From positions 2,016,001 through 2,080,000 of the forward strand of contig CAWETI010000003.1 of assembly GCA_963812015.1 (NCBI GenBank): a stretch of DNA of 64,000 bases, written 5' to 3'. The notes below the pieces were generated by a model. That model did not search any database and was not told the DNA's origin. It worked only from the letters and a program-made list of their open reading frames with translations. The translations under genes were made by a program, and so were the position numbers. Positions 3,165 to 50,645 of this stretch are shown in pieces (the first letter of the stretch is position 1; the number at the start of each line of letters is the position of its first letter). This stretch comes from an uncultured delta proteobacterium (GTDB taxonomy: Bacteria; Desulfobacterota; Desulfobaccia; Desulfobaccales; 0-14-0-80-60-11).

Positions 3165-3191
3165 CTCGGTATCGTAGCCGGGAGAAAAACC

Positions 3192-33104: not shown

Positions 33105-35639
33105 CTACAACCTCCCCAAACACTTTTTCAGCCGCCAGCGCCGCCACCAGCGCAGCAGGGAATGGGGCGGCGGCTGGGACTTGGTCTGTTGCCACTTCGG
33201 GTTGAACGGCAGGTCCAACACGTGCAGGGTGGGGTGCCCCGTCTTGGCCAGGCGGGCCCGGCAAGAGGCGCAGTAGGTGACCAGGTCCCGGGTGGCCTCG
33301 GACAGGCGGAACTCCGTCATTTTCTTGGCAAGCATTGGCGCCACCGCGGGCACCATGCCCCCGGAGCCGCAGCAGATGCTGCGCTCCCGGTTGTGGTCCA
33401 TCTCCTCCACGGTGTGGCCCAGGTCCCTGACCAGGCGGCGCACCGCCTCATGAATCTGGGGGGCCTGGCGGGCGCCGCAGGCATCTTGTATGTTAAAGAT
33501 TGCCGCCGCAGTGCTTGAAGCTCCGTCGGGCAGACCCACCTCGTTCAGCACCTCGTAGATCGTCCGGGTTTTGAACTCCGGGAGAAACTCCGTCAGCATC
33601 TGGTAACAATGGGTGCAGGCCACGATGATTTCCCGGGCCCCCAACTTCGCCATCTCCCCGGCCACATTCCGGATGACCCGGAGCATCACGTCCGTCTCCC
33701 CCATGAAATAGCTGGGGGCGCCGCAGCAGTTGAGCATGATCCCCGTATCCGGCAGCCTCCGGCGCACATACGCGTAGACCGCTTTCACCACTTCGGTGGC
33801 GTGACCCGCCAGGGAGCAGCCCGGGAAGAAAACCCGGGCCGCCTTGCCGGTGGCCGGGTCCGGCCGGCTCAAGGCAAAGGTGGGGGAAGCGCCCCACTTG
33901 ACGTAGTTCTGGATGCCCTTATGGGGAGGCAACGGCCCCTGGCCCCGGGCCACCAGGGCTTCCCGGGTCGCCAGGCAAGGCTGGCCGGCGTGGAGGTCTT
34001 TGGGGCAGACCGCCTGGCAGAGCCCGCAGTAATGGCAGGAATAGGGGATCAGGGGATCAGCCAGGCCTCGCTCCGCCAGGAGATGGACCAACTCTTTTTC
34101 CGTGTGGGGAAACTGGTGCACATAGTGCTGGAGAAAGGTACAATTGGTAACGCACCGGGAGCAGGCGCAACTCAGGCAGCGATGAGCTTCGGTCCGGGCC
34201 GCAGCTTCGGTAAAACCCAGTTCCACTTCGGCGTCCGGTTGGGCCGTCCGGGCCCCCAGGCCGAGATCAGGCATGGCCTGGCGGGAGGTGACGGCGGCGC
34301 CACTGGTATCCACGATGAGATTGGTGGTGCGGCTGACCAGGGGGGGTGGGGCTACGGGCCAGGGCTCTCCGGAGAGGGAGCAGTGGATGGCCAGGGCGGC
34401 CCGGCGGCCGGCGGCAAAGGCCTCCACCGCACTCTTCGGCCCGGAGACCAGATCGCCGCCCGCAAAAACTCCCGGAATTTTGGTCTTCAGCGTTTCCGGG
34501 TCCGCCTCCAGCCGGAAGATGGTCGCGGTGTCAAAGGCCAGGCCGGGTCCGAAAAAGCTAAAGTCCGCAGTCTGGCCCACCGCGGGGATCAGGAAGTCCA
34601 CCTCCAGGGTGAACTCGGAGCCGGGGAGCGGCACCGGGCAACAACGGCCTCGCGCGTCGAGGTCTCCCAATTCGGTCTTTTGGGCCACCAAACCCCGAAC
34701 CCGGCCATCCCCCAGGAGGCGCACCGGCTGAGTGAGGAAATGGAACTGAATGCCTTCCCGGCGGGCCTCCTCCACCTCCGCGGCCAGGGCCGGCATGAGG
34801 TCAAGGGTGCGGCGGTAGAGGACATGCACTATTTCGGCCCCGGCCCGCCAGGCGGCGCGGGCCGCGTCCACTGCGGCGTTGCCGCCCCCGATGACGGCCA
34901 CCCGGCGGCCCACCTCCGGCGGCGTCCCGACATTGACGGCCTTTAAGAAACTGATCCCGTCCATCACCCCGGCCAGGTCTTCCCCGGGAATCTGAAGACT
35001 GAGGCTCTTGTGGCTTCCCAGGGCCAGGAAGACCGCGGCAAAATCCCGGCGTAGGTCTTCCAGGTGGACATCCCGGCCCAGCCGGGTGCGGAGCTTAACG
35101 AGCGCCCCCAACTTTTCCACCACGCTCACCTCCCGGGCCAGGACCTCCCGGGGCAGGCGATACGGTGGAATGTAGATGCCCAGAGCCCCGCCCAGAAATG
35201 GTTCCGCCTCGAAGAGGGTGACGGGGTAGCCGAAGCGGCGCAGGTCATAAGCGGCCATGAGCCCCGCCGGGCCGCCGCCCACCACCGCGATACGCTGCGG
35301 CCGGTCCGGCCCCGGAGTGACGTTGAGGACGGCGCCGGGGTCCAGATCTGCCAAGCAGCGTTTGAGGCCGGCGATGGCAATGGGCTGGTCCAGGGAGTTG
35401 CGGGTGCAGGCCGCCTCACAGGGATGGGTGCAGATGCGGCCCAGGATGCCGGGAAAGGGGCAGCGCTCCAGAACCACGGCCAGGGCCGCGGCCAGGTCGC
35501 CTTGCTGCATAAACCGAAGTTTCTCCCGCACCCGGATGTCTAAAGGGCAGGCGGCCTGGCAGGGGGGCGGCTCCTCGCCGATGCACTCTGATAGGATCTT
35601 GTCGGACCAGTTGACCTTCGGATTGTCTTTATTGATCAT
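33105..35639 (-). CDS. GltD/SudA-like FAD/NAD(P) oxidoreductase fused to a ferredoxin and CCG (HdrD/GlpC-like) domains
   Basis: PCQAACP, GRICTHPCE, VGGGPAG, IGGGNAAVD, FAGGD, EAHRCL; then CHYCGLCQAVCP, FPGC, CCG, DACG, CCGSGG, TYCASC. Confidence 0.85.
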   Translation of the reverse strand: MINKDNPKVNWSDKILSECIGEEPPPCQAACPLDIRVREKLRFMQQGDLAAALAVVLERCPFPGILGRICTHPCEAACTRNSLDQPIAIAGLKRCLADLDPGAVLNVTPGPDRPQRIAVVGGGPAGLMAAYDLRRFGYPVTLFEAEPFLGGALGIYIPPYRLPREVLAREVSVVEKLGALVKLRTRLGRDVHLEDLRRDFAAVFLALGSHKSLSLQIPGEDLAGVMDGISFLKAVNVGTPPEVGRRVAVIGGGNAAVDAARAAWRAGAEIVHVLYRRTLDLMPALAAEVEEARREGIQFHFLTQPVRLLGDGRVRGLVAQKTELGDLDARGRCCPVPLPGSEFTLEVDFLIPAVGQTADFSFFGPGLAFDTATIFRLEADPETLKTKIPGVFAGGDLVSGPKSAVEAFAAGRRAALAIHCSLSGEPWPVAPPPLVSRTTNLIVDTSGAAVTSRQAMPDLGLGARTAQPDAEVELGFTEAAARTEAHRCLSCACSRCVTNCTFLQHYVHQFPHTEKELVHLLAERGLADPLIPYSCHYCGLCQAVCPKDLHAGQPCLATREALVARGQGPLPPHKGIQNYVKWGASPTFALSRPDPATGKAARVFFPGCSLAGHATEVVKAVYAYVRRRLPDTGIMLNCCGAPSYFMGETDVMLRVIRNVAGEMAKLGAREIIVACTHCYQMLTEFLPEFKTRTIYEVLNEVGLPDGASSTAAAIFNIQDACGARQAPQIHEAVRRLVRDLGHTVEEMDHNRERSICCGSGGMVPAVAPMLAKKMTEFRLSEATRDLVTYCASCRARLAKTGHPTLHVLDLPFNPKWQQTKSQPPPHSLLRWWRRWRLKKCLGRL

Positions 35640-36583: not shown

Positions 36584-39500
36584 TCAGAGCTTGACAAACT
36601 CCTGGGCGCGCTGTTCCCGGGCGCAGGCGGAACAGAGGCGGCGCAGCACCTGCTTGCCCATTACCGTGTCGCTGTGAGAACTGACATATCCCAGGTAGCG
36701 AGCCGGCGGCAGGGGGTTGCCGCAGCCCTGGCACCTGTGGACTTCCAGTTCATTCAAAACCGTGCCGCAAAGACGGACTTCCCGGTGGTCCGGGCCTTCG
36801 ATATAGTCGATGGCGCCGGTGGGGCAAGTCAGGGCGCAGGCGCCGCAGGCAATGCAGCGTTCCTGGGCCCGCCCATAATCGCTGAGCATCCGTTCGGTGG
36901 TGCTGATCTGGGTGAATTTCAAGGCATAGACCTGCATCGTATCCCGGCAAACCCGCTCGCAGGCCCCGCAGCGGATACAGATGTCACAACGGAGACAGCG
37001 TTGGGCCTCTTTTTGGGCCTGCTCCGGGGTGTAGTCCAGTTCCACCCGGTCGAAATTGGTGCGGCGCTGCTCCATGTCCAGAAAGGGCGTGGGCACCCGG
37101 TGATTGCTGATTTTGGTCTCCGCCGGGATGGCCAGAAACGGCACTCTCCGGCGTTTCTGGGTGGTGACGGTGGGGGGCAAACCGGCAGCCCCGGTCAGGT
37201 AATAGTCAATATCCAGGGCCCCCTGTTTGCCCGCGGCAATGGCCTCCACCGCGGTGGCGGGGCCAGTCACCGCGTCGCCGCCCGCGAATATGTCCGTGAC
37301 GTTGGTCCGGGTGTTCCCCCGATCGGTGATGATGGTGCACCAGGGGCTGGTATTGACCGGTGGGGCGGGGAAGGGACAGAGGTCGGGCTGTTGGCCGATG
37401 GCGGTGATCACCGCCTCCACATCCAGGCGGAAGTTGCTGTCCGGAATGCTGATGGGGCGACGGCGGCCGCTGGCGTCGGGCCGGCCCAACTCGGCCTGGA
37501 GACATTCCAAGTACCGGACCTGACCGGGTTCGCCCCCGACCTTGATGGGCACCGTGAGGAAATGGATCTGGACCCCTTCCTCCAGGGCCTGTTCCACTTC
37601 TTCGGGATGGGCCGGCATCTCTTTTCGGGTCCGGCGGTAGGACACGTGGACTTCTTTGCAGCCCAGGCGGACACAGGTGCGGGCCGCGTCCATGGCGGCG
37701 TTGCCGCCCCCGATGATCACCACTTGGTCAAAGGGCCGTCGCTTGTCCCCCAGGTTCACTTTCCTGAGGAAGGTGATGACGTCAAAGACCTGGGGAAAGT
37801 CGTCTTCCCCCTCGATCTTTAGCTTGTAGCCCAGGTGGGCCCCGATTCCCAGGAAAAAGGCTTCAAAGCCCTGGCTCCGCAATTCGTCCAGGGTGACGTC
37901 GGTCCCCACGGTAACCCCGGTTTTGATCTCCACCCCCAGGGAGCGGATGAGCTCGATTTCCTTGCGCACCACCTCCCGGGGCAGGCGATATTCGGGGATA
38001 CCGGCCACAAAAAGGCCCCCGGCCTCGGGCATGGCTTCAAAAATGGTCACCTGGTAGCCCTTCAGGGCCAGGTAATGGGCGCAGGCCATCCCGGCGGGGC
38101 CCGAGCCGATGATGGCGACCTTGCGGCCATTGGCCGGGCCCGGTTTGAGGGGCAGATATTCGCCGTGGCGGGTGGCATAGTCGGCCACAAAGGCCTTGAG
38201 GTACTTGATGTTTAGAGGTTCGTCCAGGTGGCCCCGGACGCAGGCCCGTTCGCAGGGGTGCGGGCAGATAAGACCACAGACCCAGGGGAAGGGGTTGTCC
38301 TGGCGAATCACCTCCAGGGCCTCGACGAAGCGCCCCTGCCCCACCAGGGCCATGTAGCTGGGGATGTCGATGCCCGCAGGGCAGGCCATATGGCAAGGGG
38401 CAGGCAGAAGCTTGGCGCAGACCCGGGCCGGACAGTTTTTGTTGTCCGTGTGCATCCGGTATTCATCCGGGAAATATTGGAGGGAGGTGAGAATGGGGTT
38501 GACCGCCTGGCGCCCCAGGTGGCAGGAACCCTTGAGCCTCAAGCGCTCGCAGACCGTCTTCAGCTCCTCCAGGGTGTCCCCGGTGGCTTCGCCTCCGGCG
38601 ATTTCGGCCAGCAAATCCCGGATACGGATGAGGAACTGATGGCAGGTGGGGCATTGGGCCCCGGGTTGATCCAGGAGAAAGTCGATCTGCTGGCGCACCA
38701 GGGAGACGATGCAATCCTTCTCATCCAGGACCTGAATGGTTCCCAGAGCCAGGGAGGCCCCCAGTTCCCGGAAGGTCTCGTGGCCCAGGGCCACCTGGAG
38801 GAAATTGGGGGGAAAGACGCCGCCCAGGGTGCCGCCCACCAGGATGGCCTTGGGGGTCCGGCCGTGGCGGAAGCCCCCGCCCACCCCGTTGATCACATCA
38901 CCCAGGGTGGTGGACAGGGGCACCTCCACAAACCCGGGCTGCTCCACCGCCCCCATGAGGCGGAAGATCATGGTGCCAGGGGCGCAGGAAATCCCCAGTT
39001 TCCGGAACCAGGAGACCGGGGTCTGGGCGATGAAGGGTAAAGCGGCGATGGTCCCCAGCCCGTGGAACAGAAAGGTGGGGTTGGGGTACTTTTTCCAAAA
39101 GGACGTCGGCAGGGTGGTGTGGAGGTACTGGCTGAACAGGTCCTCATCTTCCACCAAAAAGCGGGGTTCGCTGGCGACGATCTCCAGATGGACGGGCTTA
39201 TGGACCGGAGGCAGGATGTTGCTCTGGAGCAGCTTATCCCAACAATAGCGTAAGCGTTCCCGGGCCAGGGTGGCCTCGGCGGGCAGATAGACGATCACCG
39301 CCTCGGCCTGGAGGGTGTTGACCGCCAGCAGGATGCCCTCGATCACCTGGTGGGGCACGCCTTCCAGCAACAGCATCTCGGCGGTGGCCTGGGGATAAGG
39401 CGGCGCGGCGTTTACCACCAGGATGGGACGCTGGTTTTCCACCCGCAGCTCACACCAGGTGGGGCCGAAGGCCGTGCTGGTGGTTCGGGAAAATTCACAG

Positions 39501-39979
39501 AACCCCGCGGCCACCACTTTCTGGAGGAAGGAGTCAAACCCCTGGCTGTAAAAGGATCGGAGGGCTTTGTAGCCGTCGTAATCCTGGTATTCTTCCAGGC
39601 ACTGGGGGTCGATCTTGCCCAACAGCTCGGAAACGTGCATCTTCTGGGTTTCAAAGTAGGCCTCATAATCCTTGCCCACCACCCAGCGCCGGACGGGCCG
39701 GTGTTCGTCCAGGTGGCTCTGGATGATCCGGGGGACCATGTCGGGGGTGACCAGTTCGTACAGGCTGGAGGCGCCTTCATAGCGCATCTCCACCATGACG
39801 TCCCGGCCCTCGATGCCCCGCCAACCCACCAGTTGGACATCCAGGGGGCCCAGCTCATCGAAAGCCCGCTGTTTCAAGGTATCGATGAAGGCCTGGCGCA
39901 CGGCTTCGGCCTCTTCGATGGCTTTGCCGGGGAAGGTGAAGATATTCACCTGGAGCAGAGGGTATTGGCTGGCGATCAT
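36584..39979 (-). CDS. Fusion protein: degenerate HydB/NuoF-like module, GltD/SudA-like FAD/NAD(P)H module, ferredoxins
   Basis: N-terminal half follows the HydB scaffold (IDP...GYKAL, LEGVPHQVIEG, VEVP, NPILTSL, CPARVC). C-terminal half has PCHMACP, IGSGPAG, IGGGNAAMD, FAGGD and Cx2Cx2Cx3C clusters. Confidence 0.85.
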   Translation of the reverse strand: MIASQYPLLQVNIFTFPGKAIEEAEAVRQAFIDTLKQRAFDELGPLDVQLVGWRGIEGRDVMVEMRYEGASSLYELVTPDMVPRIIQSHLDEHRPVRRWVVGKDYEAYFETQKMHVSELLGKIDPQCLEEYQDYDGYKALRSFYSQGFDSFLQKVVAAGFCEFSRTTSTAFGPTWCELRVENQRPILVVNAAPPYPQATAEMLLLEGVPHQVIEGILLAVNTLQAEAVIVYLPAEATLARERLRYCWDKLLQSNILPPVHKPVHLEIVASEPRFLVEDEDLFSQYLHTTLPTSFWKKYPNPTFLFHGLGTIAALPFIAQTPVSWFRKLGISCAPGTMIFRLMGAVEQPGFVEVPLSTTLGDVINGVGGGFRHGRTPKAILVGGTLGGVFPPNFLQVALGHETFRELGASLALGTIQVLDEKDCIVSLVRQQIDFLLDQPGAQCPTCHQFLIRIRDLLAEIAGGEATGDTLEELKTVCERLRLKGSCHLGRQAVNPILTSLQYFPDEYRMHTDNKNCPARVCAKLLPAPCHMACPAGIDIPSYMALVGQGRFVEALEVIRQDNPFPWVCGLICPHPCERACVRGHLDEPLNIKYLKAFVADYATRHGEYLPLKPGPANGRKVAIIGSGPAGMACAHYLALKGYQVTIFEAMPEAGGLFVAGIPEYRLPREVVRKEIELIRSLGVEIKTGVTVGTDVTLDELRSQGFEAFFLGIGAHLGYKLKIEGEDDFPQVFDVITFLRKVNLGDKRRPFDQVVIIGGGNAAMDAARTCVRLGCKEVHVSYRRTRKEMPAHPEEVEQALEEGVQIHFLTVPIKVGGEPGQVRYLECLQAELGRPDASGRRRPISIPDSNFRLDVEAVITAIGQQPDLCPFPAPPVNTSPWCTIITDRGNTRTNVTDIFAGGDAVTGPATAVEAIAAGKQGALDIDYYLTGAAGLPPTVTTQKRRRVPFLAIPAETKISNHRVPTPFLDMEQRRTNFDRVELDYTPEQAQKEAQRCLRCDICIRCGACERVCRDTMQVYALKFTQISTTERMLSDYGRAQERCIACGACALTCPTGAIDYIEGPDHREVRLCGTVLNELEVHRCQGCGNPLPPARYLGYVSSHSDTVMGKQVLRRLCSACAREQRAQEFVKL

Positions 39980-39991
39980 CGGCAGAATCTC

Positions 39992-40516
39992 CTAGCGGGC
40001 GCTGACCACGGTGTCCAGCTCAAAAGCCACGGCCTTGGCGAGGCGTTCCCGGCGGGTGGTATCCAGCTGGTCGGCCACGCCGAAGTGGAGGCAGTGGGTG
40101 ACGCACTTGGCCACGCAGGCCGGCTTCAGCCCCTGGTCGATGCGGTCCATGCAGTAATCGCACTTGACGACCTTGCCGAGCTGGGGCTGCCATTGGGGCG
40201 CGCCCCAAGGACAGGCGGAGATGCAGCTTTTGCACCCCACGCAGAGGGACTGCTCCACATAGACAATGCCATCTTTGGGGCGCTTGCGCATGGCCCCCGT
40301 GGGGCAAACGGGCACGCACCAGGGATCGGAGCAATGAAAGCACGGCATAAACACAAAACCCATCCGGGGCACGCCCCCCACCATCTTGGGGCCGACGGAG
40401 ATAATCTGTCCCAGCCGGGGACCCGGGGGGAGGCCCTTGTTACTCTTGCAATGCACTTCACAGCTCAAACAGCCGATGCATCGCTTCTGGTCCTGCAACA
40501 GGTAGTATTGACTCAT
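39992..40516 (-). CDS. 4x[4Fe-4S] electron-transfer subunit (PsrB/PhsB/DmsB-like)
   Basis: CIGCLSCEVHC, CFHCSDPWCVPVCP, CVGCKSCISACP, KCDYC...PACVAKC. Confidence 0.9.
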   Translation of the reverse strand: MSQYYLLQDQKRCIGCLSCEVHCKSNKGLPPGPRLGQIISVGPKMVGGVPRMGFVFMPCFHCSDPWCVPVCPTGAMRKRPKDGIVYVEQSLCVGCKSCISACPWGAPQWQPQLGKVVKCDYCMDRIDQGLKPACVAKCVTHCLHFGVADQLDTTRRERLAKAVAFELDTVVSAR

Positions 40517-40586
40517 CTATTCCTCCACAAAACTCGATCACGCCCGCGGCAGATTCGGGAACCGCCCCAGGCCTGCCGGGTCGAGA

Positions 40587-42680
40587 CTATTTCAGGCGCC
40601 GCACCTGCACCAGGGTATTATCAAACGCCGGGCTGCCGCCCACCGGGTCCGAGACGTTTTCCTGGAGCAGGGCGTCGGAGGCTCCTTTCAGATAGCAGCG
40701 GGTTTGGACCGGCACGGTTTTGCCAAACCCATGGAGCATGAAGACCGCTTCAGGGTGAATCATGTCCGTCACCTTGGCCTTGATTCGGGAGGCGGCCAGC
40801 GGGGAGATGACCTCCACCTCCTCACCGTCTTTGATGCCCAGGCGGCCCGCGGCCTCGCTATTGATCCACAGGAAGTTTTCCGGCACCAGCTCATTCAAGT
40901 AAATGTTGTTCTGGGTGGACATGTGGGTGTGCACCGCACTGCGGCCCACCAGGAGCTTGAAATCGCCGTTGCCGTTACCGGATCGGATTACCGGGATGTA
41001 GGGCGGGAAGGACTGAAAGCCGGCGCTCTCCAGGAGCGGGCTGACCAGCTCGAACTTTCCTGACGGGGTCTTGAACTTGATGCCTTTTTCCCGGTCCCAC
41101 AGGAGGGTCTGCTCGGTCAAGGCCACAAAGCCCTTGGCGTCGAAATCCTCGATCTTCACTTCCAGATCCCGGAGCTGGAAATTCCAGATGTCCTCAAGGG
41201 TTTCATAGGGGAAGTAGCGGCCCAGGTCCAGGCGCTGGGCCAGTTGCTTGAGGATCAGCCAGGCGGGACGGGTGTCATAGCGGGGGCTCACCGCCGGCCG
41301 GCGCATGTAGAGCTGGGGTTTTAGCCCCGGCACCAGCTGGATGGAATCGCCCCGCTCCAGGTAGATGGATTCCGGCAGGATGACGTCGGAGTACCAGGCG
41401 ATTTCACTGAAGTTGACGTCGATGGTGACGATGAGGTCGAGCTTGTCCAGGGCCTTCCGGGTGGTGGCGCTGCCGGGAATGGACTGGAGCGGCTCGAACC
41501 GGTTGATGATCAAGGCCTTGATGGGATAAGGGTCTTCATTCAAGATGGCATGGGGCAGCATCTGGGGATTGCCGTGGGAGGCGTCGGCCACGGGAAACTT
41601 TTCGAGCCCGGAGCCGTCAAAGCGCGGCGCCTTGATCTTGGGAAACTCCTGTTCCACATACTTCCGGATATCCCCCCGGCCTGCCTCCTTGGGGCCTTTC
41701 TTGAAAAAAAGCCCGCCCTTGGCTTCGATACTGCCCATCAGGGCATTGAGGATAATCAGGGAGCGCCGGAAATAGACTTCGTTGGGATGGTGCGACCCCC
41801 GGTAGCCGTAGTGGAAGACCACGGCAGGCTTGGCCGCGGCGGCTTCCCGGGCCAGGCTGACGATCTCGGCGGCCGGAATGCCCGTTTCCGCCTCGGCCCA
41901 TTCCGGGGTGTAGGGTTCGATGAAGGCCTGGAGCTCCTTAAGGCCTTTGACCCAGCGGCGGACGTAGGGGGCGTCGTGGAGCTTCTCTTTCAGGATGGTG
42001 TGGATCAGGGCGTAGTTGAGGGCCAGGTCGGTGCCGGGGCGGATCATCAGGTAACGGTCGGCCTTGGTGGCGGTAATGCTCACCCGGGGGTCGATATAGA
42101 CGAGCTTGGCCCCCTTTTCCATGGCGTTCAGCAGGTTGTTGATGCCCTTGATCTCCAGGGATTCGAAGAGGTTGCGGCCGTACATGACAATATAGCGGGT
42201 GTTGGCGTAATCCACCCCCACCTGGGCGTCGGTGTAGCCGGTGAGACTCCGGAAAGCGGTGTTCACCGAGCCTTTACACAGGGCGTCGTGGGTAAAATGG
42301 TTGGGGGAGCCGATGGCCTTCATGAAGGTCTTGCTGATGTGGGTATTCAGATTGGTGCGCTCCCCGAAGACCAGGCTCTGGGCGCCGTGCTGCTTAATGA
42401 TGTCCTTGAGTCTGTCGCCTACGTAATCCAGGGCTTCAGTCCAGGTGGCCTGGCGCCATTGTCCGGCCCCTCGGGGGCCGGTGCGGATCATGGGGTACTG
42501 GGGCCTTTCTGCGTCGTGGAGCAGGGCCAGTCCCGCGGAGCCTTTGGCGCACAGGGCCCCCTCGATGCCCGGCACGTGGGGGTTGCCTTCGATCCACTTC
42601 ACGTCGTCATTTTCCACCAGGACCCGGATGGGACAGCGCACCGTGCACATGAAGCAGATGCTGTAGACTTCTTTTGCCAT
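40587..42680 (-). CDS. Molybdopterin oxidoreductase catalytic subunit, PsrA/PhsA-like, no Tat signal
   Basis: Starts directly at SICFMCTVRC...LCAKG; GSPNHFTHDALC (Cys ligand), IRPGTDLAL, SDVILP, TPSGKFEL. RBS GAGGAAGG before ATG 42680. Confidence 0.85.
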   Translation of the reverse strand: MAKEVYSICFMCTVRCPIRVLVENDDVKWIEGNPHVPGIEGALCAKGSAGLALLHDAERPQYPMIRTGPRGAGQWRQATWTEALDYVGDRLKDIIKQHGAQSLVFGERTNLNTHISKTFMKAIGSPNHFTHDALCKGSVNTAFRSLTGYTDAQVGVDYANTRYIVMYGRNLFESLEIKGINNLLNAMEKGAKLVYIDPRVSITATKADRYLMIRPGTDLALNYALIHTILKEKLHDAPYVRRWVKGLKELQAFIEPYTPEWAEAETGIPAAEIVSLAREAAAAKPAVVFHYGYRGSHHPNEVYFRRSLIILNALMGSIEAKGGLFFKKGPKEAGRGDIRKYVEQEFPKIKAPRFDGSGLEKFPVADASHGNPQMLPHAILNEDPYPIKALIINRFEPLQSIPGSATTRKALDKLDLIVTIDVNFSEIAWYSDVILPESIYLERGDSIQLVPGLKPQLYMRRPAVSPRYDTRPAWLILKQLAQRLDLGRYFPYETLEDIWNFQLRDLEVKIEDFDAKGFVALTEQTLLWDREKGIKFKTPSGKFELVSPLLESAGFQSFPPYIPVIRSGNGNGDFKLLVGRSAVHTHMSTQNNIYLNELVPENFLWINSEAAGRLGIKDGEEVEVISPLAASRIKAKVTDMIHPEAVFMLHGFGKTVPVQTRCYLKGASDALLQENVSDPVGGSPAFDNTLVQVRRLK

Positions 42681-42759
42681 ATCTGGACCTTCCTCTGTGT
42701 TATTCAACCTTAATTACATATTAACCTTTTATCGTTTATATATAAATAGGTTCCCATAA

Positions 42760-43377
42760 TTATCGGTCTTTGGCGACTGTGCCGACCGATATTGCAGCCG
42801 GCGAGATTCCGGGTGGTTTGGCCAAGGTTTCCACCGCCTTAACCGGACGATCGTCAACATCCGGGAGTTTTTTGGTCCCGCGGAAATACGGCAGTTTATG
42901 TTTCAGCCGCTTAAACAGGATATACGCCGGGATATACAACAGGACAAAAATCCCGATATAGCCCACGGAAAAACCGATGAACGGCAGGGGGAACGCCATC
43001 TCCAGAAAGCGGTACTGCATCCAGCCCAAGGCGAAGAAGATGGGCCAAAAAAACGTTGCCGACAGAGCTAGTTGCATGAAGAAAGACTTGCCGAAGGCCT
43101 CATTGGCCACCTTGTTAGCGGCCTCATAGGCTGGCCTATTTCCCGCCTTGAGGGCCTCCATGGACAAATCCTGATATCTCTTGGCTTCGCCGGCTACCTC
43201 CTCGAAGTTTCTCCGCACCATAAGCGAGGCCAGAAAGGAGGTGAACTCCCCCACCAGCAGGGAGAGAACCGCCAGGGCCAGGGTGCCCAGGAGAAAATTC
43301 ACCGCCGCGGAACCTGAGAGCCGGTAAAACCAGATCAGGTAAGGATCCAGCCAGAGGTAAAGGGGATGCATTTCCAT
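42760..43377 (-). CDS. Hypothetical membrane protein
   Basis: Three to four hydrophobic segments; lies between tauE and the molybdoenzyme on the same strand. Confidence 0.7.
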   Translation of the reverse strand: MEMHPLYLWLDPYLIWFYRLSGSAAVNFLLGTLALAVLSLLVGEFTSFLASLMVRRNFEEVAGEAKRYQDLSMEALKAGNRPAYEAANKVANEAFGKSFFMQLALSATFFWPIFFALGWMQYRFLEMAFPLPFIGFSVGYIGIFVLLYIPAYILFKRLKHKLPYFRGTKKLPDVDDRPVKAVETLAKPPGISPAAISVGTVAKDR

Positions 43378-43443
43378 ATCTTTCGCGCCGGTAAGGAGGG
43401 GCGCCAGGGCCCGCCCCTCCGACCTTGCCTCTCGTGTTTTAGA

Positions 43444-44610
43444 TTACAAGCCTGGGAAGATGGATTTTCCCATAAACCCCTTGGTGAGATAACCGATACC
43501 GACGTAAATCGCCAGAACCACGAAGATGCGCTTCAGCCAGACCTCTGGGATCTTCTTGGAAGTTAACGGGCCAAGGACGGAGCCGATGGCGATGCCGATG
43601 AGTTCGGTGCTGATCAAGATAAAATCTACGGAAACCTGCTGGACCACCATCATGTTGAAGATGTTGACGATCATGCCCACCAGCACCGCCAGGGCCGAAG
43701 TGCCGGCCACGATGAACATGGGCAGCCCGGCCACCGAGGTCAGGAAGGGTACGTAGAGGAAGCCGCCGCCCACCCCGATGAAGGCCGAGATGCCGTTGAT
43801 GATGAACCCCCCCAGGAGGGGATAGAGGGGATTGAAGGAAAATTCCTGGCCGTAAAAGGTAAAGGCGATCTTGCTGACTCCCCAATGGGTGACCTGGACG
43901 CCGCAGGCCTGGGCCCCGGTCTCATCCACGGCGCACTTGCGGATGTGGATGTCCTCAAAGGCCTTGGCCGCGGCCTTGGCCGCTTTCTTCTTGGCCTGTC
44001 CCGCGGGGGTGGTTTCATAAAAGAGCACGAAGGCCACAGCAAAGACGATAATGCCAAAGAAACCCACATAGAGGCTGACATCCATTTTGCCCACCGTCAA
44101 CAGGGGGACTAGGTAGCCGGCCAGGATGCCGCCGACAGCCAGACACAGGCCCAAAGGCAGCACCAAACGGCCCATGCGATAGTAGGTAAAGGAAGAGATC
44201 AACGCCGACAGTCCCACCAGGTACTGGTTCGAAGTTCGGATGGAGTCGGTAAGCAGCTTATTCAGACTGGGACTAGATTTTTTAAAGGTAGCGGCATAAT
44301 CCGACAGCCCGAAGACCGAGATATGCCCCACCCCGGCCATGATGCCGCCAAAGGCGCCAACCGAAGAAAAAATCCAACCCACCCAGATGCCCCACAGGAT
44401 GTAAAACAGCCAGAAATGATGGGGCGCGCCGGGAATCCCCATGAACCCCTTGGGCATGTCGGGATGGATCATGCCGGGGCCGGTGCCCACGGGGGTCTTG
44501 GCAATGGCATCTTCCAGCTTGCCGGCCCAAGACGGTTCCACCAGGACCAGGGTGGTCACCACGGCCAGGGCGGCCAGGAAAAAGATGATGAGTACAGGTT
44601 TGTTCCGCAT
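43444..44610 (-). CDS. Sulfite exporter TauE/SafE family protein with N-terminal extension
   Basis: SSVGAFGGIMAG and FIGVGGGFLYVP repeats, VAGTS; RBS AGGAGG before MRNKP. Confidence 0.85.
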   Translation of the reverse strand: MRNKPVLIIFFLAALAVVTTLVLVEPSWAGKLEDAIAKTPVGTGPGMIHPDMPKGFMGIPGAPHHFWLFYILWGIWVGWIFSSVGAFGGIMAGVGHISVFGLSDYAATFKKSSPSLNKLLTDSIRTSNQYLVGLSALISSFTYYRMGRLVLPLGLCLAVGGILAGYLVPLLTVGKMDVSLYVGFFGIIVFAVAFVLFYETTPAGQAKKKAAKAAAKAFEDIHIRKCAVDETGAQACGVQVTHWGVSKIAFTFYGQEFSFNPLYPLLGGFIINGISAFIGVGGGFLYVPFLTSVAGLPMFIVAGTSALAVLVGMIVNIFNMMVVQQVSVDFILISTELIGIAIGSVLGPLTSKKIPEVWLKRIFVVLAIYVGIGYLTKGFMGKSIFPGL

Positions 44611-44743
44611 GAAATCCTCCTGCATGAAGAATATGGTCAAGTGCGCCGGCACCTGGCCGGGATAATGATTTTTACCGGCTTTTTCGCCAAGCATCGCCCT
44701 GACCCCTGGCGCGCCAAGCCTGACTTAATAGATTGCAAAGATG

Positions 44744-44759
44744 AGCAAATAGTATGCCA
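44744..44759 (-). promoter_or_regulatory. Sigma54 promoter of the tauE-molybdoenzyme operon
   Basis: Minus strand TGGCATACTATTTGCT, a near-consensus -24/-12 element. Confidence 0.85.
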
Positions 44760-45058
44760 ACTATTGCCATTGTATTATTTACAACTTTTAATAACCTTCC
44801 AGGAAGATAATCATGCCTTCACTGATCACTGGATGCCCCCAACCCGAAGGGGGCAGACGGGAACCCCGCGCCATAACGTGCGCCGCCTCAGTCTTTTCAG
44901 GGCATATCTAAAGATTTAAGGAGGTAGTTAAGGCCCGTTCAGGCCAACTTTTTCCCGGGAACCAGAACCTTACCAAGGAGCAGCTTATAAGCGATTGATC
45001 ACATCTAGTTTGAATCATTATTTTTTTTTAAAATGCCTCAATTTTCTTGGCGGCGCAA

Positions 45059-45111
45059 CGTTAATCGTTTATGCTTAACACACGTAAGCTCGTTAACGGT
45101 TAACCCTTAAC
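45059..45111. promoter_or_regulatory. Heptamer array (NNTTAAC), putative activator binding sites
   Basis: CGTTAAT-CGTTTAT-GCTTAAC (45059) and CGTTAAC-GGTTAAC-CCTTAAC (45091). Confidence 0.55.
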
Positions 45112-45223
45112 CCGGGAAACGTCTTCCCCTTCCGGGGCTGAGCCGGCCAAGATGCAGGGAGGCAGTTACCGTCCAGGCTGATTTCACCCGATCACGGGTC
45201 CATCATGCTCCAAGGAGACGATT

Positions 45224-46738
45224 TTGAAAGGAAAAGCCAATCGAGACAAGCAGGATGTTCCCGAGGCCCTGTTTGAAGAAGGCCAAGAGTACTTCTGGAA
45301 GACCGTTATTGACACCATGATGGACGGCTTGGTGCTGGTGGACGTGGAGGGGGTGATCCTGTCCGTCAACCAGGCCATGGAGCAGATTACCGGCTACAGC
45401 CGGGAGGAGCTCATCGGCCAACCCTGCACCATCCTCAAGTGCCATGCCTGCCTGGATTCGGTGGTCTTGGGCCGGCGAAAAGAATGCGAGCTGTTCCGGC
45501 GGGGGCATGTCCGGCGGCGCAAGTGCATGCTGGAAAAAAAGGACGGCACGCCCCTGCCGGTGCTGAAAAACGCCGCCATCCTCAAGGACAGCAACGGCAA
45601 GGTGGTGGCCGGGGTGGAGAACTTCACCGACCTCAGCGAGGTAGAGGCCAAGGAACGGGTCATCTCACATCTGCGCCGCTCACTCAGCCGAGAGGACAGC
45701 ACCTTCGATCCGCCGGTCCAGTCCCCGGATATGATGCAGCTGTTCATCTCCCGCCTGCGCCAGGAACTCAACAAAGAGGACGGCTTTCACGGCCTTATCG
45801 GCACCTCGCCGGTCATGCTGCAACTGTGCACCCTCATCTCCAGCGCCGCCCAATCCGAGGCCCCGGTGGTGATCTATGGGGAGTCCGGCACCGGCAAAGA
45901 ACTGGTGGCCGCGGCCATCCACCGCCTCAGTCCCCGGCACCAGGGGCCCTTCATCAAGGTGAACAGCGCCGCCCTGAATGAATCCTTACTGGAGAGCGAG
46001 CTCTTCGGCCACGTCAAAGGCGCCTTCACCGGGGCCGACCGCACCCGGGTGGGGCGCTTCGAGGCCGCCAGCGGGGGGGACATCTTCCTGGACGAGGTGG
46101 GGGACCTGCCCATGGCCACCCAGGCCAAGCTCCTCCGGGTGCTTCAGGAAAAGGTCATTGAAAAAGTGGGGGACCACGCCCCCATCCCGGTGAATGTCCG
46201 GATCATCACCGCCACCAACAAGGACCTTCACCGGCTCATGGCCCTGGGCAGGTTCCGGGAAGACCTCTACTACCGGATCGGCGTCATTCCCATTCACTTG
46301 CCGCCCTTAAGGGAACGGCGGGAGGATATCCCCCTGCTGGTCAAGGCCTTCATCTACCGGGCCCGGCGCCAGACCCGCAAACCTCTCACCGGCATCAGCG
46401 ATGAGGCCCTGGACCTGATCACCAGCCATGATTGGCCCGGCAACGTCCGGGAGCTCATCAATGTCATCGAGTACGCCTTTGTCCTGTGTAACGAAGGGGC
46501 CATTCAGCCGGAACATCTCCCGGCCACGTTTCATCAGAAGGCTGCGCCGCCGCTCCGGGAACGCCGCCTGGGCCGGTTAGGGCGGGCGACGGACGAGCGC
46601 CAGCGGCTGATCGATGCGGTTAACCAGGCCGGGGGCAAGAAGAGCGAGGCCGCCCGCCTCCTGGGCATCAGCCGGGTGACCCTGTGGAAGCTCCTCAAGG
46701 TCCACGACATCCAGGTGGACAAGATTATCCGCGGTTAA
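45224..46738 (+). CDS. PAS-domain sigma54-dependent activator
   Basis: PAS with a Cys cluster, GESGTGKE, GAFTGA, WPGNVREL, HTH; divergent from the sigma54 promoter at 44744-44759. Confidence 0.92.
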   Translation: MKGKANRDKQDVPEALFEEGQEYFWKTVIDTMMDGLVLVDVEGVILSVNQAMEQITGYSREELIGQPCTILKCHACLDSVVLGRRKECELFRRGHVRRRKCMLEKKDGTPLPVLKNAAILKDSNGKVVAGVENFTDLSEVEAKERVISHLRRSLSREDSTFDPPVQSPDMMQLFISRLRQELNKEDGFHGLIGTSPVMLQLCTLISSAAQSEAPVVIYGESGTGKELVAAAIHRLSPRHQGPFIKVNSAALNESLLESELFGHVKGAFTGADRTRVGRFEAASGGDIFLDEVGDLPMATQAKLLRVLQEKVIEKVGDHAPIPVNVRIITATNKDLHRLMALGRFREDLYYRIGVIPIHLPPLRERREDIPLLVKAFIYRARRQTRKPLTGISDEALDLITSHDWPGNVRELINVIEYAFVLCNEGAIQPEHLPATFHQKAAPPLRERRLGRLGRATDERQRLIDAVNQAGGKKSEAARLLGISRVTLWKLLKVHDIQVDKIIRG

Positions 46739-46803: not shown

Positions 46804-46831
46804 GGCAGGGCCAATCCGGCCCTGCCTTTTT
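46804..46831 (+). terminator. Rho-independent terminator
   Basis: GGCAGGGCC-AATCC-GGCCCTGCC-TTTTT. Confidence 0.75.
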
Positions 46832-46870: not shown

Positions 46871-47578
46871 TTAAAGTTCCACCGGCTCCCTGGCTTTAGC
46901 CTTCAGCCTTTTATAGATCACCGGGACGAGACTCACGATGAGCACCAGGATCACCCCGATGATCACTCCCCGGGAAAGGTTGCCGTGGATGAGGTCCAGG
47001 AGGTTGCTGGAGAAATACACGAAGGCAATGGTGGAGGGCAGCATCGCGACGAAGGTGGCGGCCAGATACGGCCAGAATGCGATCCGGGTGAGCCCGAAAG
47101 CGTAATTCAACAGGGAGAAGGAGAAAACCGGGATGAGCCGGGTGAAGGCCACGATCTTCCAGCCATGCCGGGCCACTTTGTCATCCAGGGACATCAACCG
47201 GGTGCCGGCCAGCTTCCCGGTCACCCAGTCCCGGGCCAGGTAGCGGGCCACCAGAAAGACCAGCCCCGCGCCGAAGGTGGCGCCAAACGCCGTATAAACC
47301 ACCCCCCAAACGGGGCCGAAGAGCACCCCGCCGGCCAGGGTGATGGGAAGCCCGGGGAGGAAAAGCGGCCCCACGGTCCACACCGCCAGGTAGATCAGGG
47401 GCAGCAGGACCGGATACGCGGCGCCGAACCGGCGCAGCCGCTCCTGATCCAGGTACTGCTCCAGGTGAAAATACTGCATGGCCACCACCGCTCCGATCAA
47501 TAACAGGAAGATGAGCGGGCGGATGACGGCCGCCTTTTTCCGGCTCGCCGGAGAATTTTCCCTGTGAAGATGTGTCAT
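46871..47578 (-). CDS. TVP38/TMEM64 (DedA/VTT) membrane protein
   Basis: LPGLPITLAGGVLFG, RLIPVF, LNYAFGLT. Confidence 0.9.
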   Translation of the reverse strand: MTHLHRENSPASRKKAAVIRPLIFLLLIGAVVAMQYFHLEQYLDQERLRRFGAAYPVLLPLIYLAVWTVGPLFLPGLPITLAGGVLFGPVWGVVYTAFGATFGAGLVFLVARYLARDWVTGKLAGTRLMSLDDKVARHGWKIVAFTRLIPVFSFSLLNYAFGLTRIAFWPYLAATFVAMLPSTIAFVYFSSNLLDLIHGNLSRGVIIGVILVLIVSLVPVIYKRLKAKAREPVEL

Positions 47579-47705
47579 GCAGCTCTCCTGAAGTTATCTT
47601 AACCCAGGCGGATCGTCAGCCCAAACGGGATACCATGCGCGGGGTCTAATGTTACTTCCCAGATATATCTTTCAAAAATATTTTCCCCATGTTTGAGAGG
47701 TTTTC

Positions 47706-47733
47706 GTGGGGGCGGTTCGCGAACCGCCCCTAC
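47706..47733. repeat. GTAG-type REP palindrome
   Basis: GTGGGGGCGGTTCGCGAACCGCCCCTAC; core repeated at 49284 and 62631. Confidence 0.8.
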
Positions 47734-47790
47734 AACAGCCTCCGGGAATGGAAGCCGGCAACTGCTGAAAGATACTCCCGAGACATGACA

Positions 47791-48489
47791 CTATCGCCCC
47801 GACTCCGGTTGGTTGGGACCCTGGCGCCCGAGCAACCGGCGGGCCTCCTGAAAGCTGCGCCATCCCGGCTCCGGCTCCCGGCGGGGCCGACGTAGGAAGG
47901 CCAGCAGATCGGCAGAGGTGTCGATGTCAGTCCAGGGGGGGAGTAGGTGGACCCTGAGCCCCAACTGCCGGGCCAACCGGAGGGTGTCCGTGAGGACCGT
48001 GCCGCTGGACCAGGCCGGCCCCTGGAACAAGCGGGGCTGAGGCTCACTGAGGCCCACCAGATAGTACCCGCCGTCGGGGCAAGGCCCCAGCGCCACCTCG
48101 GCCCGCCCGGCCGCCAGGACCTCTCTGGCCTCCGACACCACTGCGGCCGCCAGGTCCGGGACGTCGCTACCCCTGAGCAGTACGGGGCCAAAACCGCCGG
48201 CAAAACCCCGGGCGAAGGCCCGGGCCATGCGCTCCCCCAAATCCGCCCCCTCCTGGGAGAAGAGGTCCGCGCCTGGGAAGGCCTGGCTCCGAAAAAAGTC
48301 CCGGGACCCGGGGGGACTAAAAGCCAGGGCCAGGCGGACTACCGGCACCCGGGCCATTTCTTCCAGGATATCCTGAAGAAAACTGTGATACAGTTGCGCG
48401 ACCTCCTCCGGGGAGAGCGGCGGGCTGAGACGGGTTTTCACCCGCCCCGGGCGGGGTTCCTTGGCAAAAATGATGAGCAGGGCGGTCAT
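47791..48489 (-). CDS. Arsenosugar-cluster glycosyltransferase-like protein (TIGR04282/DUF2064 type)
   Basis: IFAKEPRPGRVKTRL, QEGADLGERM, GSDVP, LGPCPDGGYYLVG, DIDT. Start placed at MTALL. Confidence 0.85.
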   Translation of the reverse strand: MTALLIIFAKEPRPGRVKTRLSPPLSPEEVAQLYHSFLQDILEEMARVPVVRLALAFSPPGSRDFFRSQAFPGADLFSQEGADLGERMARAFARGFAGGFGPVLLRGSDVPDLAAAVVSEAREVLAAGRAEVALGPCPDGGYYLVGLSEPQPRLFQGPAWSSGTVLTDTLRLARQLGLRVHLLPPWTDIDTSADLLAFLRRPRREPEPGWRSFQEARRLLGRQGPNQPESGR

Positions 48490-48492
48490 ACG

Positions 48493-49206
48493 GTGCGCGA
48501 CACCAAACGGAAGCCGGACATAAGCATCATCCTGCCGATTCTCAATGAGGCCCCCATTCTGGCCGAGACCCTGTCCGGCCTGCCCCGGTCTCCCGACCTG
48601 GAAATTATCCTGGTGGACGGCGACAGCACCGACGCCACCCGGGAAGTGGCGGCCGGCTTCCCTCACGTTCGCTGGCTTATCGCTCCCCGGGGCCGGGGGG
48701 CCCAAATGAACGCCGGGGCCCGGATGGCCCGGGGAGACCTTTTCGTATTTCTGCACATCGACACCGTTCTGACCCCGGACCATGTAGCCGCTCTGCGCCG
48801 GGCCGCCGCCGACCCCGCAGTCGGCGCCGGAGCCTTTGCCCTTCGCCTGACGCCGCCAACCCCCTTCCTCAAGTTTATCGCCTGGGGGGCAAACTGGCGC
48901 TGCCGCCTCTTGCGCCTGCCCTATGGGGACCAAGCCATTTTCGTGCGCCGGGACCTGTTCTTCGCCCTGGGCGGTTTTGCCCACCGCCGCCCAGAAGACC
49001 TGGACCTGGTGATCCGGCTACGACGGCTCACCCGGCTCCGCCTCTTGAGGCCGCCGGTTTCGAGCTCCGGGCGCCAATGGCTGCAACAGGGCAACCTCCG
49101 GACCTCTGGCTCCCACTGGGTCTTCCTGATCCACCACCTGGCCGAACGCCTCCTCACCCGCCGCTGGCCCGTGATGGGTGAGTTGTGTGTTGGGGGAAGG
49201 GGCTAA
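48493..49206 (+). CDS. Arsenosugar-cluster GT2 glycosyltransferase (TIGR04283 type), start approximate
   Basis: ISIILPILNEA, VDGDSTD, GRGAQMNAGA, FLHID, PYGDQAIF, EDLD, SSGR. Confidence 0.85.
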   Translation: MRDTKRKPDISIILPILNEAPILAETLSGLPRSPDLEIILVDGDSTDATREVAAGFPHVRWLIAPRGRGAQMNAGARMARGDLFVFLHIDTVLTPDHVAALRRAAADPAVGAGAFALRLTPPTPFLKFIAWGANWRCRLLRLPYGDQAIFVRRDLFFALGGFAHRRPEDLDLVIRLRRLTRLRLLRPPVSSSGRQWLQQGNLRTSGSHWVFLIHHLAERLLTRRWPVMGELCVGGRG

Positions 49207-49263
49207 GGCCTTTTCGTAAGTGGCCCCTACCCCTTCCCCCAAACCCCCTTCCGCAACCCCTTA
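49189..49263. repeat. Dispersed repeat family, copy B
   Basis: Reverse-complement match to 33032-33102; overlaps the stop codon of the GT2 gene. Confidence 0.8.
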
Positions 49264-49283
49264 CAGGGGGCTGGGAGGGGGGT

Positions 49284-49311
49284 GTAGGGGCGGTTCGCGA
49301 ACCGCCCCTAC
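49284..49311. repeat. GTAG-type REP palindrome
   Basis: GTAGGGGCGGTTCGCGAACCGCCCCTAC, a perfect 28-bp palindrome. Confidence 0.85.
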
Positions 49312-49340
49312 GTCCCCGGCCCCGCAATTTTCTACTTCCT

Positions 49341-50303: not shown

Positions 50304-50312
50304 GGGTTTGCC

Positions 50313-50645
50313 CTACACGGTGATCTTGGCGGCGGCGTTGTGGGCCTGGATGCCATGAATCAGGGTGGCCCCGCCCCGGATGGCCGCGGCCACGTGAATG
50401 GCCTCGGTCATCTCCTCCATATTGGAGCCGGCTTCCAGGGACCCCCGGGTATAGGCGTCGATGCAGTAGGGGCACTGGACCGCGTGGGCCACCGCCAGGG
50501 CGATGAGGGCCTTTTCCCGGGTCGTCAAGGCCCCGGCGCTCATGACCCCCTGGTAGTAGTTCATGAAGATATCATAGAGATCGGGGCGATATTTGCCGAT
50601 CTCGTCAAATCTTTCCAGGTCATTCTCTTCGTAGTAGTGCGACAT
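50313..50645 (-). CDS. AhpD/CMD-family peroxidase-like protein associated with arsS
   Basis: GALTTREKALIALAVAHAVQCPYCIDAY; RBS AGGAGG. Confidence 0.88.
   Translation of the reverse strand: MSHYYEENDLERFDEIGKYRPDLYDIFMNYYQGVMSAGALTTREKALIALAVAHAVQCPYCIDAYTRGSLEAGSNMEEMTEAIHVAAAIRGGATLIHGIQAHNAAAKITV

Follow-up and report, generated by a model that had tools for sequence, protein, structure and literature searches.

A Tat-less PhsAB operon with a sigma54 promoter element and a candidate NADPH-oxidizing flavoprotein in an uncultured Desulfobaccales-type bacterium

Respiratory polysulfide and thiosulfate reductases, such as PsrABC of T. thermophilus (2vpw) and Wolinella or PhsABC of Salmonella, are periplasmic and linked to quinol through a membrane subunit. 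Anchor-less variants are also on record. Dissulfuribacter thermophilus encodes a PhsA/PhsB pair of the ~700-residue type without PhsC (DITHS69_2028/2027), which is stated to lack a twin-arginine translocation (Tat) signal and to be cytoplasmic, and for which thiosulfate cleavage is proposed (PMC13490349). Likewise, Desulfolithobacter dissulfuricans encodes two such pairs (GF1_30490/30500 and GF1_10120/10130), with PhsA proteins of 701 and 705 residues and with NuoA adjoining PhsAB-1 (PMC9751629). These proteomic studies put forward a cytoplasmic PhsAB that lacks PhsC as a candidate for the opening reaction of thiosulfate disproportionation and query its electron source (PMC13490349; PMC9751629). 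Here we describe a related operon in a 64,000-nucleotide stretch of contig CAWETI010000003.1 (hereafter the window) from an uncultured delta proteobacterium, in which genes for a Tat-less PhsAB pair are combined with those for a 1131-residue flavoprotein, a TauE-type carrier, a small membrane protein and a divergent sigma54 activator. At a probability of about one half, we read it as a sigma54-controlled module with which a sulfate reducer of the Desulfobaccales type, equipped with DsrAB, splits thiosulfate into sulfide and sulfite in its cytoplasm at the expense of NADPH.

The minus-strand gene order is tauE, 205-residue membrane protein, 697-residue PhsA/PsrA-like subunit, 174-residue PhsB and 1131-residue flavoprotein, and all six reading frames, the divergent PAS-sigma54 activator included, lie where the original prediction had placed them, with the domains it had assigned. 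The operon is real, conserved and coherent; gene content, the missing Tat signal, motif losses and retentions, conservation and linkage are observations at the level of sequence or computation. The host genome carries dsrA, and its closest named relatives are Desulfobaccales metagenome-assembled genomes. Compared with PsrABC and PhsABC, the operon encodes the same catalytic fold, a Cys molybdenum (Mo) ligand and a four-cluster B subunit, but no Tat signal, no NrfD or cytochrome b anchor and, instead, a soluble flavoprotein. With the Dissulfuribacter and Desulfolithobacter enzymes it shares the type of PhsAB pair and, we infer, clade membership. However, what comes after GF1_30490-30500 is a pair of NuoA/NuoB genes and not a flavoprotein gene, and whereas the published accounts leave the donor of Tat-less PhsAB open and propose Apr-derived electrons, a flavoprotein is co-encoded here.

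The cytoplasmic location claimed for the catalytic subunit is borne out by its reading frame, which spans 708 codons from stop to stop; because only ~11 codons precede the Met at 42680, a Tat peptide cannot hide upstream. Moreover, no transmembrane segment is predicted in PhsA, PhsB or the flavoprotein. The Psr/Phs-type assignment of the catalytic subunit likewise stands: among solved structures, PsrA of T. thermophilus comes first (2vpw, E 7.6e-114, 384.8 bits, with the next at 181), and among the curated NCBIfam models PhsA scores best, albeit below its cut-off (586.5 bits, versus 256.5 for FdhA, 170.2 for ArrA and 75.4 for TtrA). Cys135 aligns with Cys173 of PsrA, which we take to be the Mo ligand. 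In the literature, a Cys is given as Mo ligand for the PsrA/PhsA/SrrA family of the MopB superfamily as a whole. The fold, which binds Mo-bis(pyranopterin guanine dinucleotide) (Mo-bisPGD), the N-terminal [4Fe-4S] motif and the aligned Cys are features of that family, and by model and structure scores, as distinct from a tree with characterized enzymes, the protein is nearer PsrA/PhsA than Ttr, Arr, Dms, Fdh or Nar. In PhsB, the 16 cluster-motif Cys residues are invariant across 21 sequences.

A match to the catalytic subunit at E 1e-100 occurs in 135 of 401 genomes of the phylum, and 93 loci were compared in detail (80 Tat-less and 13 of the Tat clade), a non-random set made up of 60 neighborhoods hand-chosen across the score range and 33 of 34 further loci, one unrelated match having been dropped. 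Two of the loci (L114 and L115) are Tat-negative by regular expression; they were counted with the Tat clade because of their twin-Arg-like or long leaders and their position in the tree. In a midpoint-rooted FastTree phylogeny of 147 sequences, the Tat-less Desulfobacterota proteins, including the product of 40587..42680, form one clade (support 1.0) apart from the Tat-bearing proteins, with a few leaderless proteins falling outside it. The tree is made up of sequences other than characterized reference enzymes. Among the proteins picked up by a profile built from the clade are named ones from Dissulfurimicrobium hydrothermale, Thermodesulfatator and Desulfospira, and the catalytic subunit is 45% identical to the Dissulfurimicrobium hydrothermale protein.

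The two clades differ in their neighborhoods. NrfD or cytochrome b genes lie near 1/80 Tat-less loci but near 11/13 Tat-clade loci, in keeping with the predicted absence of such an anchor from the operon itself. The flavoprotein shows the reverse pattern (55/80 versus 0/13), and a NuoB/NuoD module accompanies 7/80 Tat-less loci. The remaining 18 Tat-less loci have neither partner above threshold, some of them at contig ends, and include a stand-alone second copy in this same genome. Across the phylum, 59 full-length flavoprotein orthologues were retained (matches above ~590 bits, weaker GltD-like paralogues being dropped), in 59 of the 401 genomes: 45 lie within 10 kb of a phsA of the Tat-less tier, which was set by score with Tat checked in the fetched loci only, 11 lie elsewhere in a genome with such a phsA and three are in genomes of 61-67% completeness without a listed phsA. 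By chance, ~15 would be expected to share a genome with phsA, in a count where kin are not independent. With the same caveat about kin, dsrA is above cut-off in 60 of the 66 cluster-bearing genomes, compared with 201/401 overall. The cluster is conserved across Desulfobacterota, mostly in dsrA carriers.

In the seven loci with NuoB/NuoD-type genes (L090, L092, L095, L096, L103, L106 and L121), most of the Tat-less phsA genes stand directly before a NuoABCDHI-like run. Genes for a URO-D-like protein of the methyltransferase type and for a corrinoid protein lie 3' of the flavoprotein gene in four related loci (L018-L021). The second Tat-less PhsA-like protein of the host (G000:C3:97435-99507; L124:8421-10526) is 47% identical to the first, has no PhsB alongside and is encoded between two PBP-superfamily binding-protein genes, upstream of ABC permease/ATPase-like reading frames. 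The latter are presumably of the tungstate/molybdate type. The activator, too, has a paralogue here (C3:111447-112814, ~12 kb from the second PhsA), in which the five PAS Cys residues are all kept. Additionally, a MopB-family match with one in-frame TGA, at ~3186-4655 of the window (G000:C3:2019186-2020655), is probably a selenocysteine formate dehydrogenase, and three further TGA-bearing MopB matches lie elsewhere in the genome.

The flavoprotein joins a BfuB/NuoF-like and an NfnA/GltD/DsrL-like part in one chain, and for both halves the best sequence and fold matches are the Nfn-Bfu/StnABC transhydrogenases (9bov, 9n5u, 8oh5). Its C-terminal half combines a flavin adenine dinucleotide (FAD) module, a YRR motif (781-783), a 2x[4Fe-4S] domain and a C-terminal group of Cys residues (1071, 1083, 1086, 1116 and 1119). 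YRR, described as a mark of NADP(H) use in DsrL-2 and NfnB, is present in 60/60 long, 13/13 short and 3/6 roughly 1000-residue forms. The cluster ligands C533, C572, C576 and K595 map onto the 3Cys+Lys A7 cluster beside the FAD of NfnA, which is assigned to the non-bifurcating FAD branch, and Lys595 is kept in 59/60 long forms. The N-terminal half retains the BfuB fold (TM-score 0.73-0.85 over BfuB/NfnB chains), but the glycine-rich loop for flavin mononucleotide (FMN), GRGGxGF, the NADExxP motif and a full B1 motif occur in 0/79 partner proteins, as opposed to 4/4 intact fusions, and the N-terminal B5 Cys is absent from all 15 long forms displayed. Three of the four B1 Cys residues persist in 56-58/60 long forms, so that an altered B1 cluster is possible. 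The sole invariant residues of this half, in 83/83 aligned sequences, are C423, H510, C516 and C521 of the B2 site; in most Bfu structures this site is occupied by Zn, and bifurcation can do without it. No reading frame for a BfuC subunit (C1 cluster) was found in the operon, supply in trans lying outside this search. Because the N-terminal half has lost the FMN/NADH motifs and the C-terminal half has the NADP(H) motif YRR, the likely donor is NADPH, not NADH, without Bfu-type bifurcation. Of the NAD(P)H module originally predicted, the pyridine-nucleotide partner is therefore present, but the NuoF-like half does not count as an NADH/FMN site and the evidence points to NADPH only.

That the N-terminal half is a decaying pseudogene is ruled out by purifying selection: the ratio of nonsynonymous to synonymous substitution rates (dN/dS) for residues 1-415 is 0.13-0.33, compared with 0.09-0.24 for the C-terminal half (8 pairs). 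Related Tat-less PhsAB pairs are accompanied by shorter forms of the flavoprotein or by a Complex-I-like module. Orthologues of ~720 residues start just before C423 and hold the same gene position, some forms of ~650 residues lack the whole N-terminal half, and together the proteins mark successive stages in the decay of BfuB (~1130, ~1000, ~720 and ~650 residues), with the B2 ligands as the last part retained. A predicted complex of PhsB with flavoprotein residues 416-1131 scored 0.57 (best control 0.00), with at least 59% of contacts shared and a partner pLDDT (predicted local distance difference test) of at least 78. The mark used is reached by 116/157 solved and 2/215 mismatched pairs, and 18 of the solved pairs and both mismatches lie at or below 0.60. 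Complex formation thus finds weak support in prediction, and the pair could possibly pass by its likeness to AegA-type fusions of similar domains.

Two loci (L089:10901-17218 and L091:1400-7592) have two tandem flavoprotein paralogues of roughly 1000 residues after phsAB, one with YRR and the other with CLE in its place and both with degenerate NuoF halves, which may point to a heterodimer or to one protein each for NADPH and NADH. Loci with the ~720-residue form (L010, L011, L012, L024, L027, L028, L030, L075, L077, L084 and L104) often add a gene for a 255-residue [2Fe-2S]+2x[4Fe-4S] protein similar to the N-terminal part of NuoG/HydA and, in most cases, one for a CBS-domain protein; the additions could provide a nucleotide-sensing regulator and an extra electron branch.

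Several described systems resemble parts of this assembly. The flavoprotein shares the Lys-ligated cluster beside FAD and the B2 ligands with Nfn-Bfu/StnABC, but here B-like and A-like parts are fused, the chain has lost the FMN/NADH motifs along with B5 and one of the B1 ligands, BfuC is missing and the protein is tied to a Mo enzyme. DsrL has the same order of ferredoxin, FAD/NAD(P), linker and 2x[4Fe-4S] parts, DsrL-2 the same YRR, and the host has dsrAB; in this case, however, the gene stands outside the dsr operon, Lys replaces a Glu cluster ligand, N-terminal BfuB-derived and C-terminal Cys parts are added, and the partner is PhsAB (a comparison of features, not of a DsrL tree). In AegA/YgfT with FdhF of E. 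coli, a four-cluster ferredoxin and a GltD-like module also serve a MopB-family enzyme, and the AegA model finds PhsB as well as the flavoprotein; there the parts are fused and act in formate and urate metabolism, whereas here they are separate genes next to a Psr/Phs catalytic subunit. The PsrAB-NuoABCDHIJKLMN arrangement of Thermodesulfovibrio N1 likewise combines Psr/Phs A and B subunits without an anchor of their own with an alternative electron module, the type seen in the 7/80 loci, although that module is described as membrane-bound and Complex-I-like and not as a soluble NADPH flavoprotein. MolyABC of the MOLY cluster is described with a TorD-type chaperone (MolyC) and an extracellular location, as opposed to the lack of a TorD gene and of Tat in this operon. 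The NAD(P)H-dependent polysulfide/thiosulfate reductase of Thermotoga is reportedly not a Mo enzyme. That activity is described as cytoplasmic (PMC9431562).

In the mechanism we favor, the FAD of the flavoprotein would oxidize NADPH and pass single electrons on, first through the NfnA-type and C-terminal Fe-S clusters, then through the four of PhsB and finally to the Mo-bisPGD of PhsA, which would cleave thiosulfate to sulfide and sulfite, the latter being received by DsrAB. The flavoprotein would thus replace the quinol-oxidizing PhsC, with its BfuB-like half as a scaffold or docking part; since that half has lost FMN/NADH chemistry, the enzyme would be a plain NADPH:acceptor oxidoreductase. 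TauE and its EMC3/TMCO1-like partner would carry a sulfur oxyanion, either importing thiosulfate or exporting sulfite, and the operon would be turned on by the activator with its Cys-rich PAS domain. Complex formation, NADPH use, substrate, direction of transport and sensed signal are presumptive here, thiosulfate being the best guess. Family placement and the link to dsrA speak for this mechanism. A Tat-less PhsAB-like pair of Dissulfuribacter rises by 2.5-3.5 log2 in thiosulfate disproportionation, together with a TauE and a co-occurring membrane protein (PMC13490349), and phsAB mutants of D. alaskensis are reported to have a mild fitness loss on thiosulfate, the Tat status of that PhsA not being established here.

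A number of points weigh against this reading. The catalytic subunit falls short of the curated PhsA cut-off (NF012032, 694 bits), and the PsrA/PhsA/SrrA family, as described, also includes polysulfide, sulfur and selenite reductases. The residues at the Mo ligand are of the HDALCKGS type in most of the 46 loci of this subclade but of the HDxxCxRN type in the sister Tat-less group (29 loci, 38-51% identity), which probably holds the proteomically studied enzymes, the Dissulfuribacter, Desulfolithobacter and D. alaskensis sequences not having been placed in the tree; because of this difference in active-site motifs, the thiosulfate evidence transfers only indirectly. Desulfolithobacter PhsAB is not among the major thiosulfate-induced proteins (PMC9751629), and thiosulfate is described as reducible by DsrAB itself. 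NADPH (~ -380 mV in cells, as reported) and the thiosulfate couple (~ -400 mV) are close to equilibrium. Additionally, 8/41 top-tier phsA genes have no listed flavoprotein gene within 10 kb, one of the three complex predictions gave 0.00 (the others 0.64 and 0.57), and for every member the mechanism is argued from sequence and computation.

The same cytoplasmic, NADPH-linked architecture might instead serve another sulfur substrate (polysulfide, a protein-bound or organic persulfide, tetrathionate or trithionate) in redox balance or detoxification. The best solved relative is, after all, a polysulfide reductase, the family accepts several substrates, the active-site motifs are specific to the subclade, and the Cys-rich PAS domain could sense sulfane sulfur. 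Such a role nevertheless seems unlikely, given that for PhsAB without an anchor or without Tat the published proteomics and fitness measurements favor thiosulfate, that the TtrA score is far under that of PhsA and that TauE-type oxyanion carriers are linked at 47/80 loci.

We consider it improbable that the flavoprotein is a two-input confurcating module (NADH plus NADPH, or NADPH plus ferredoxin) in which the BfuB-like half is still active, either at an altered flavin or cluster site or with a BfuC supplied in trans. The whole BfuB fold under purifying selection, the three remaining B1 Cys residues and the B2 ligands would fit such a function, and a low-potential input would ease the thermodynamics, but the uniform loss of the FMN, NADH and B1 motifs among the partner proteins, the lack of bfuC in the operon and the ~720-residue orthologues that do without most of the N-terminal half argue otherwise, and the retained B2 site is the dispensable Zn site. 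We give equally little credence to an oxidative or reversible module that would gain NADPH from a sulfur intermediate, for example in disproportionation or acetate oxidation. Although DsrL-type flavoproteins work both ways, the redox couples are near equilibrium and the Tat-less clade includes an obligate sulfur disproportionator, SoeA, which is a cytoplasmic sulfite oxidase, and bacterial SreA are placed in a different family, NADP-specific DsrL-2 accompanies reductive DsrAB, and proteomic models put PhsAB in a reductive step. Least probable of all is a cytoplasmic selenium or arsenic oxyanion reductase for detoxification, suggested by SrrA in the same family, by arsenosugar-biosynthesis genes just past the activator and by a "dicluster near Sec"-like flavoprotein gene downstream, given that these neighbors occur in close Desulfobaccales-type loci only (VTT and glycosyltransferase genes in 13-15, the dicluster gene in 8, none in L065-L124), that the ArrA score is far under that of PhsA and that the dsrA link is strong.

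The neighbors in question look like ordinary synteny because of that restriction, and we read the arsenosugar genes as locally syntenic among close relatives, not as functionally tied to the operon. They comprise, at 46871-50645 of the window, arsenosugar-biosynthesis-type genes (ArsS TIGR04167, TIGR04169, TIGR04282, TIGR04283 and a VTT protein) and, at 33105-35639, a second GltD-like flavoprotein gene with CCG domains (NF045663 "dicluster near Sec", 522 against a cut-off of 530), which lies downstream of a CAP-domain gene, as it does in 8 close loci.

TauE scores 67.6 bits against PF01925 (gathering score 32.6), and its start is probably at 44610, giving 388 residues where relatives have ~387. 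Its subfamily occurs at 36/80 Tat-less and 0/13 Tat-clade loci (any TauE at 47/80 Tat-less loci), and the 205-residue membrane protein is found in exactly those 36 loci (36/36). The latter matches PF01956 below cut-off (E 9e-4; Atlas lead 0.88). The top fold match of its model (pLDDT 81) is 7tut_8 (Z 9.7, root-mean-square deviation (rmsd) 5.1, 138 aligned), presumably TMCO1, and EMC3 (6ww7_C) follows with Z 7.8, rmsd 7.8 and 130 aligned; these are the longest alignments among the top rows, and helical proteins reach such scores by chance. No conserved His was found in its alignment, which, together with its co-occurrence with TauE, led us to reject it as a quinone anchor; it looks like a partner of TauE rather than a part of the reductase. 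A second TauE, of a different subfamily, is encoded at 31328-32296 of the window, ~4 kb downstream of the operon and on the opposite strand.

The sigma54 promoter expected ahead of tauE is the only strict match to the pattern in the window (23 in the whole genome), and a similar site faces tauE in 14/19 related loci, versus ~0.01 expected per locus in shuffles. The divergent activator, also anticipated, is present in 17/19 tauE-bearing close loci, with all five PAS Cys residues in 14/17 (one split over two matches), four in two and three in one, which suggests a metal or sulfane-sulfur sensor. The best-conserved stretch of the intergenic region, present in 9/9 aligned sequences, is a GTTAA/TTAAC block that is a probable candidate for the upstream binding site of the activator. 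A search of the region ahead of the operon gave no sigma70 promoter. Terminator consensus matches in the region number 18, compared with 12.4 in shuffles. In metatranscriptome contigs from four runs (85% likeness), operon and flanking control genes were covered alike, and no contig spanned the operon. Coordinates are collected in Table 1.

Table 1. Features of the operon and its control region, in window coordinates
Feature	Position	Strand	Evidence or remarks
Flavoprotein residues 526-1131, NfnA/GltD/DsrL-like FAD-NADP(H) module	36584..38404	-	Domain models, motif alignment
Flavoprotein residues 1-525, BfuB/NuoF fold	38405..39979	-	Without FMN/NADH motifs or B5 Cys; B2 (Zn-site) ligands kept
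PhsB/DmsB-like 4x[4Fe-4S] subunit, 174 residues	39992..40516	-	Domain models
Tat-less PhsA/PsrA-like Mo/W-bisPGD catalytic subunit, 697 residues	40587..42680	-	N-terminal [4Fe-4S] motif; Cys135 predicted Mo ligand
Membrane protein, 205 residues, ~3 transmembrane helices, EMC3/TMCO1 (Oxa1-superfamily)-like	42760..43377	-	Weak Pfam match, PF01956
TauE/SafE-family transporter	43444..44610	-	PF01925, E 1.7e-18; longest reading frame from 44694
Sigma54 -24/-12 promoter element TGGCATACTATTTGC	44745..44759 (read 44759-44745)	-	Similar element in 14/19 related loci
GTTAA/TTAAC direct and inverted repeat block	45057..45113	strand-neutral	Conserved in 9/9 aligned intergenic sequences
Sigma54 activator (PAS, AAA+, helix-turn-helix)	45224..46738	+	Pfam; PAS Cys residues C68, C73, C76, C88, C101
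Terminator-like hairpin 3' of activator	46804..46826	+	Consensus match only

Given the published Tat-less, cytoplasmic PhsAB without PhsC from Dissulfuribacter (PMC13490349) and Desulfolithobacter (PMC9751629), the original description of the system as undescribed was too strong. However, the open-access literature gave no account of PhsAB with such a flavoprotein or of a degenerate BfuB half, though subscription papers or supplements may hold one; a flavoprotein-linked PhsAB is not described in the available parts of PMC4911364, PMC9324843 and PMC8528874, and the further prior art drawn on, likewise as available, was PMC12998232, PMC4215793, PMC6378623, PMC9304861, PMC11829005, PMC12018979, PMC7596348, PMC10100899, PMC5165239 and PMC8097209. 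Our analysis adds to this by naming the electron-input partner, with an NADPH signature and a pseudo-BfuB half kept under selection, and by showing that relatives have a Complex-I-like module in its place.

For a type of enzyme with an obscure donor, the flavoprotein points to a possible source of electrons. For one large subclade, the operon offers a testable answer, a co-encoded NADPH flavoprotein, with a Complex-I-like module taking its place in other lineages. Since flavoprotein orthologues occur in 59/401 genomes, this route could be relevant to how thiosulfate is turned over in anoxic sediments, and the graded decay of BfuB bears on how bifurcating modules are recycled. More tentatively, and with the odds against it as a whole, Tat-less PhsAB might be a catalytic head with interchangeable electron plugs, the commonest being a Bfu-derived NADPH flavoprotein that lost its bifurcation site stepwise and whose pseudo-BfuB half took on a new job, such as docking ferredoxin or BfuC for low-potential electrons or redox gating. 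If true, many Desulfobacterota would thereby have the so far missing point at which electrons enter the first step of thiosulfate reduction and disproportionation, with no proton-motive force spent and with a TauE carrier that has a dedicated Oxa1-like partner.

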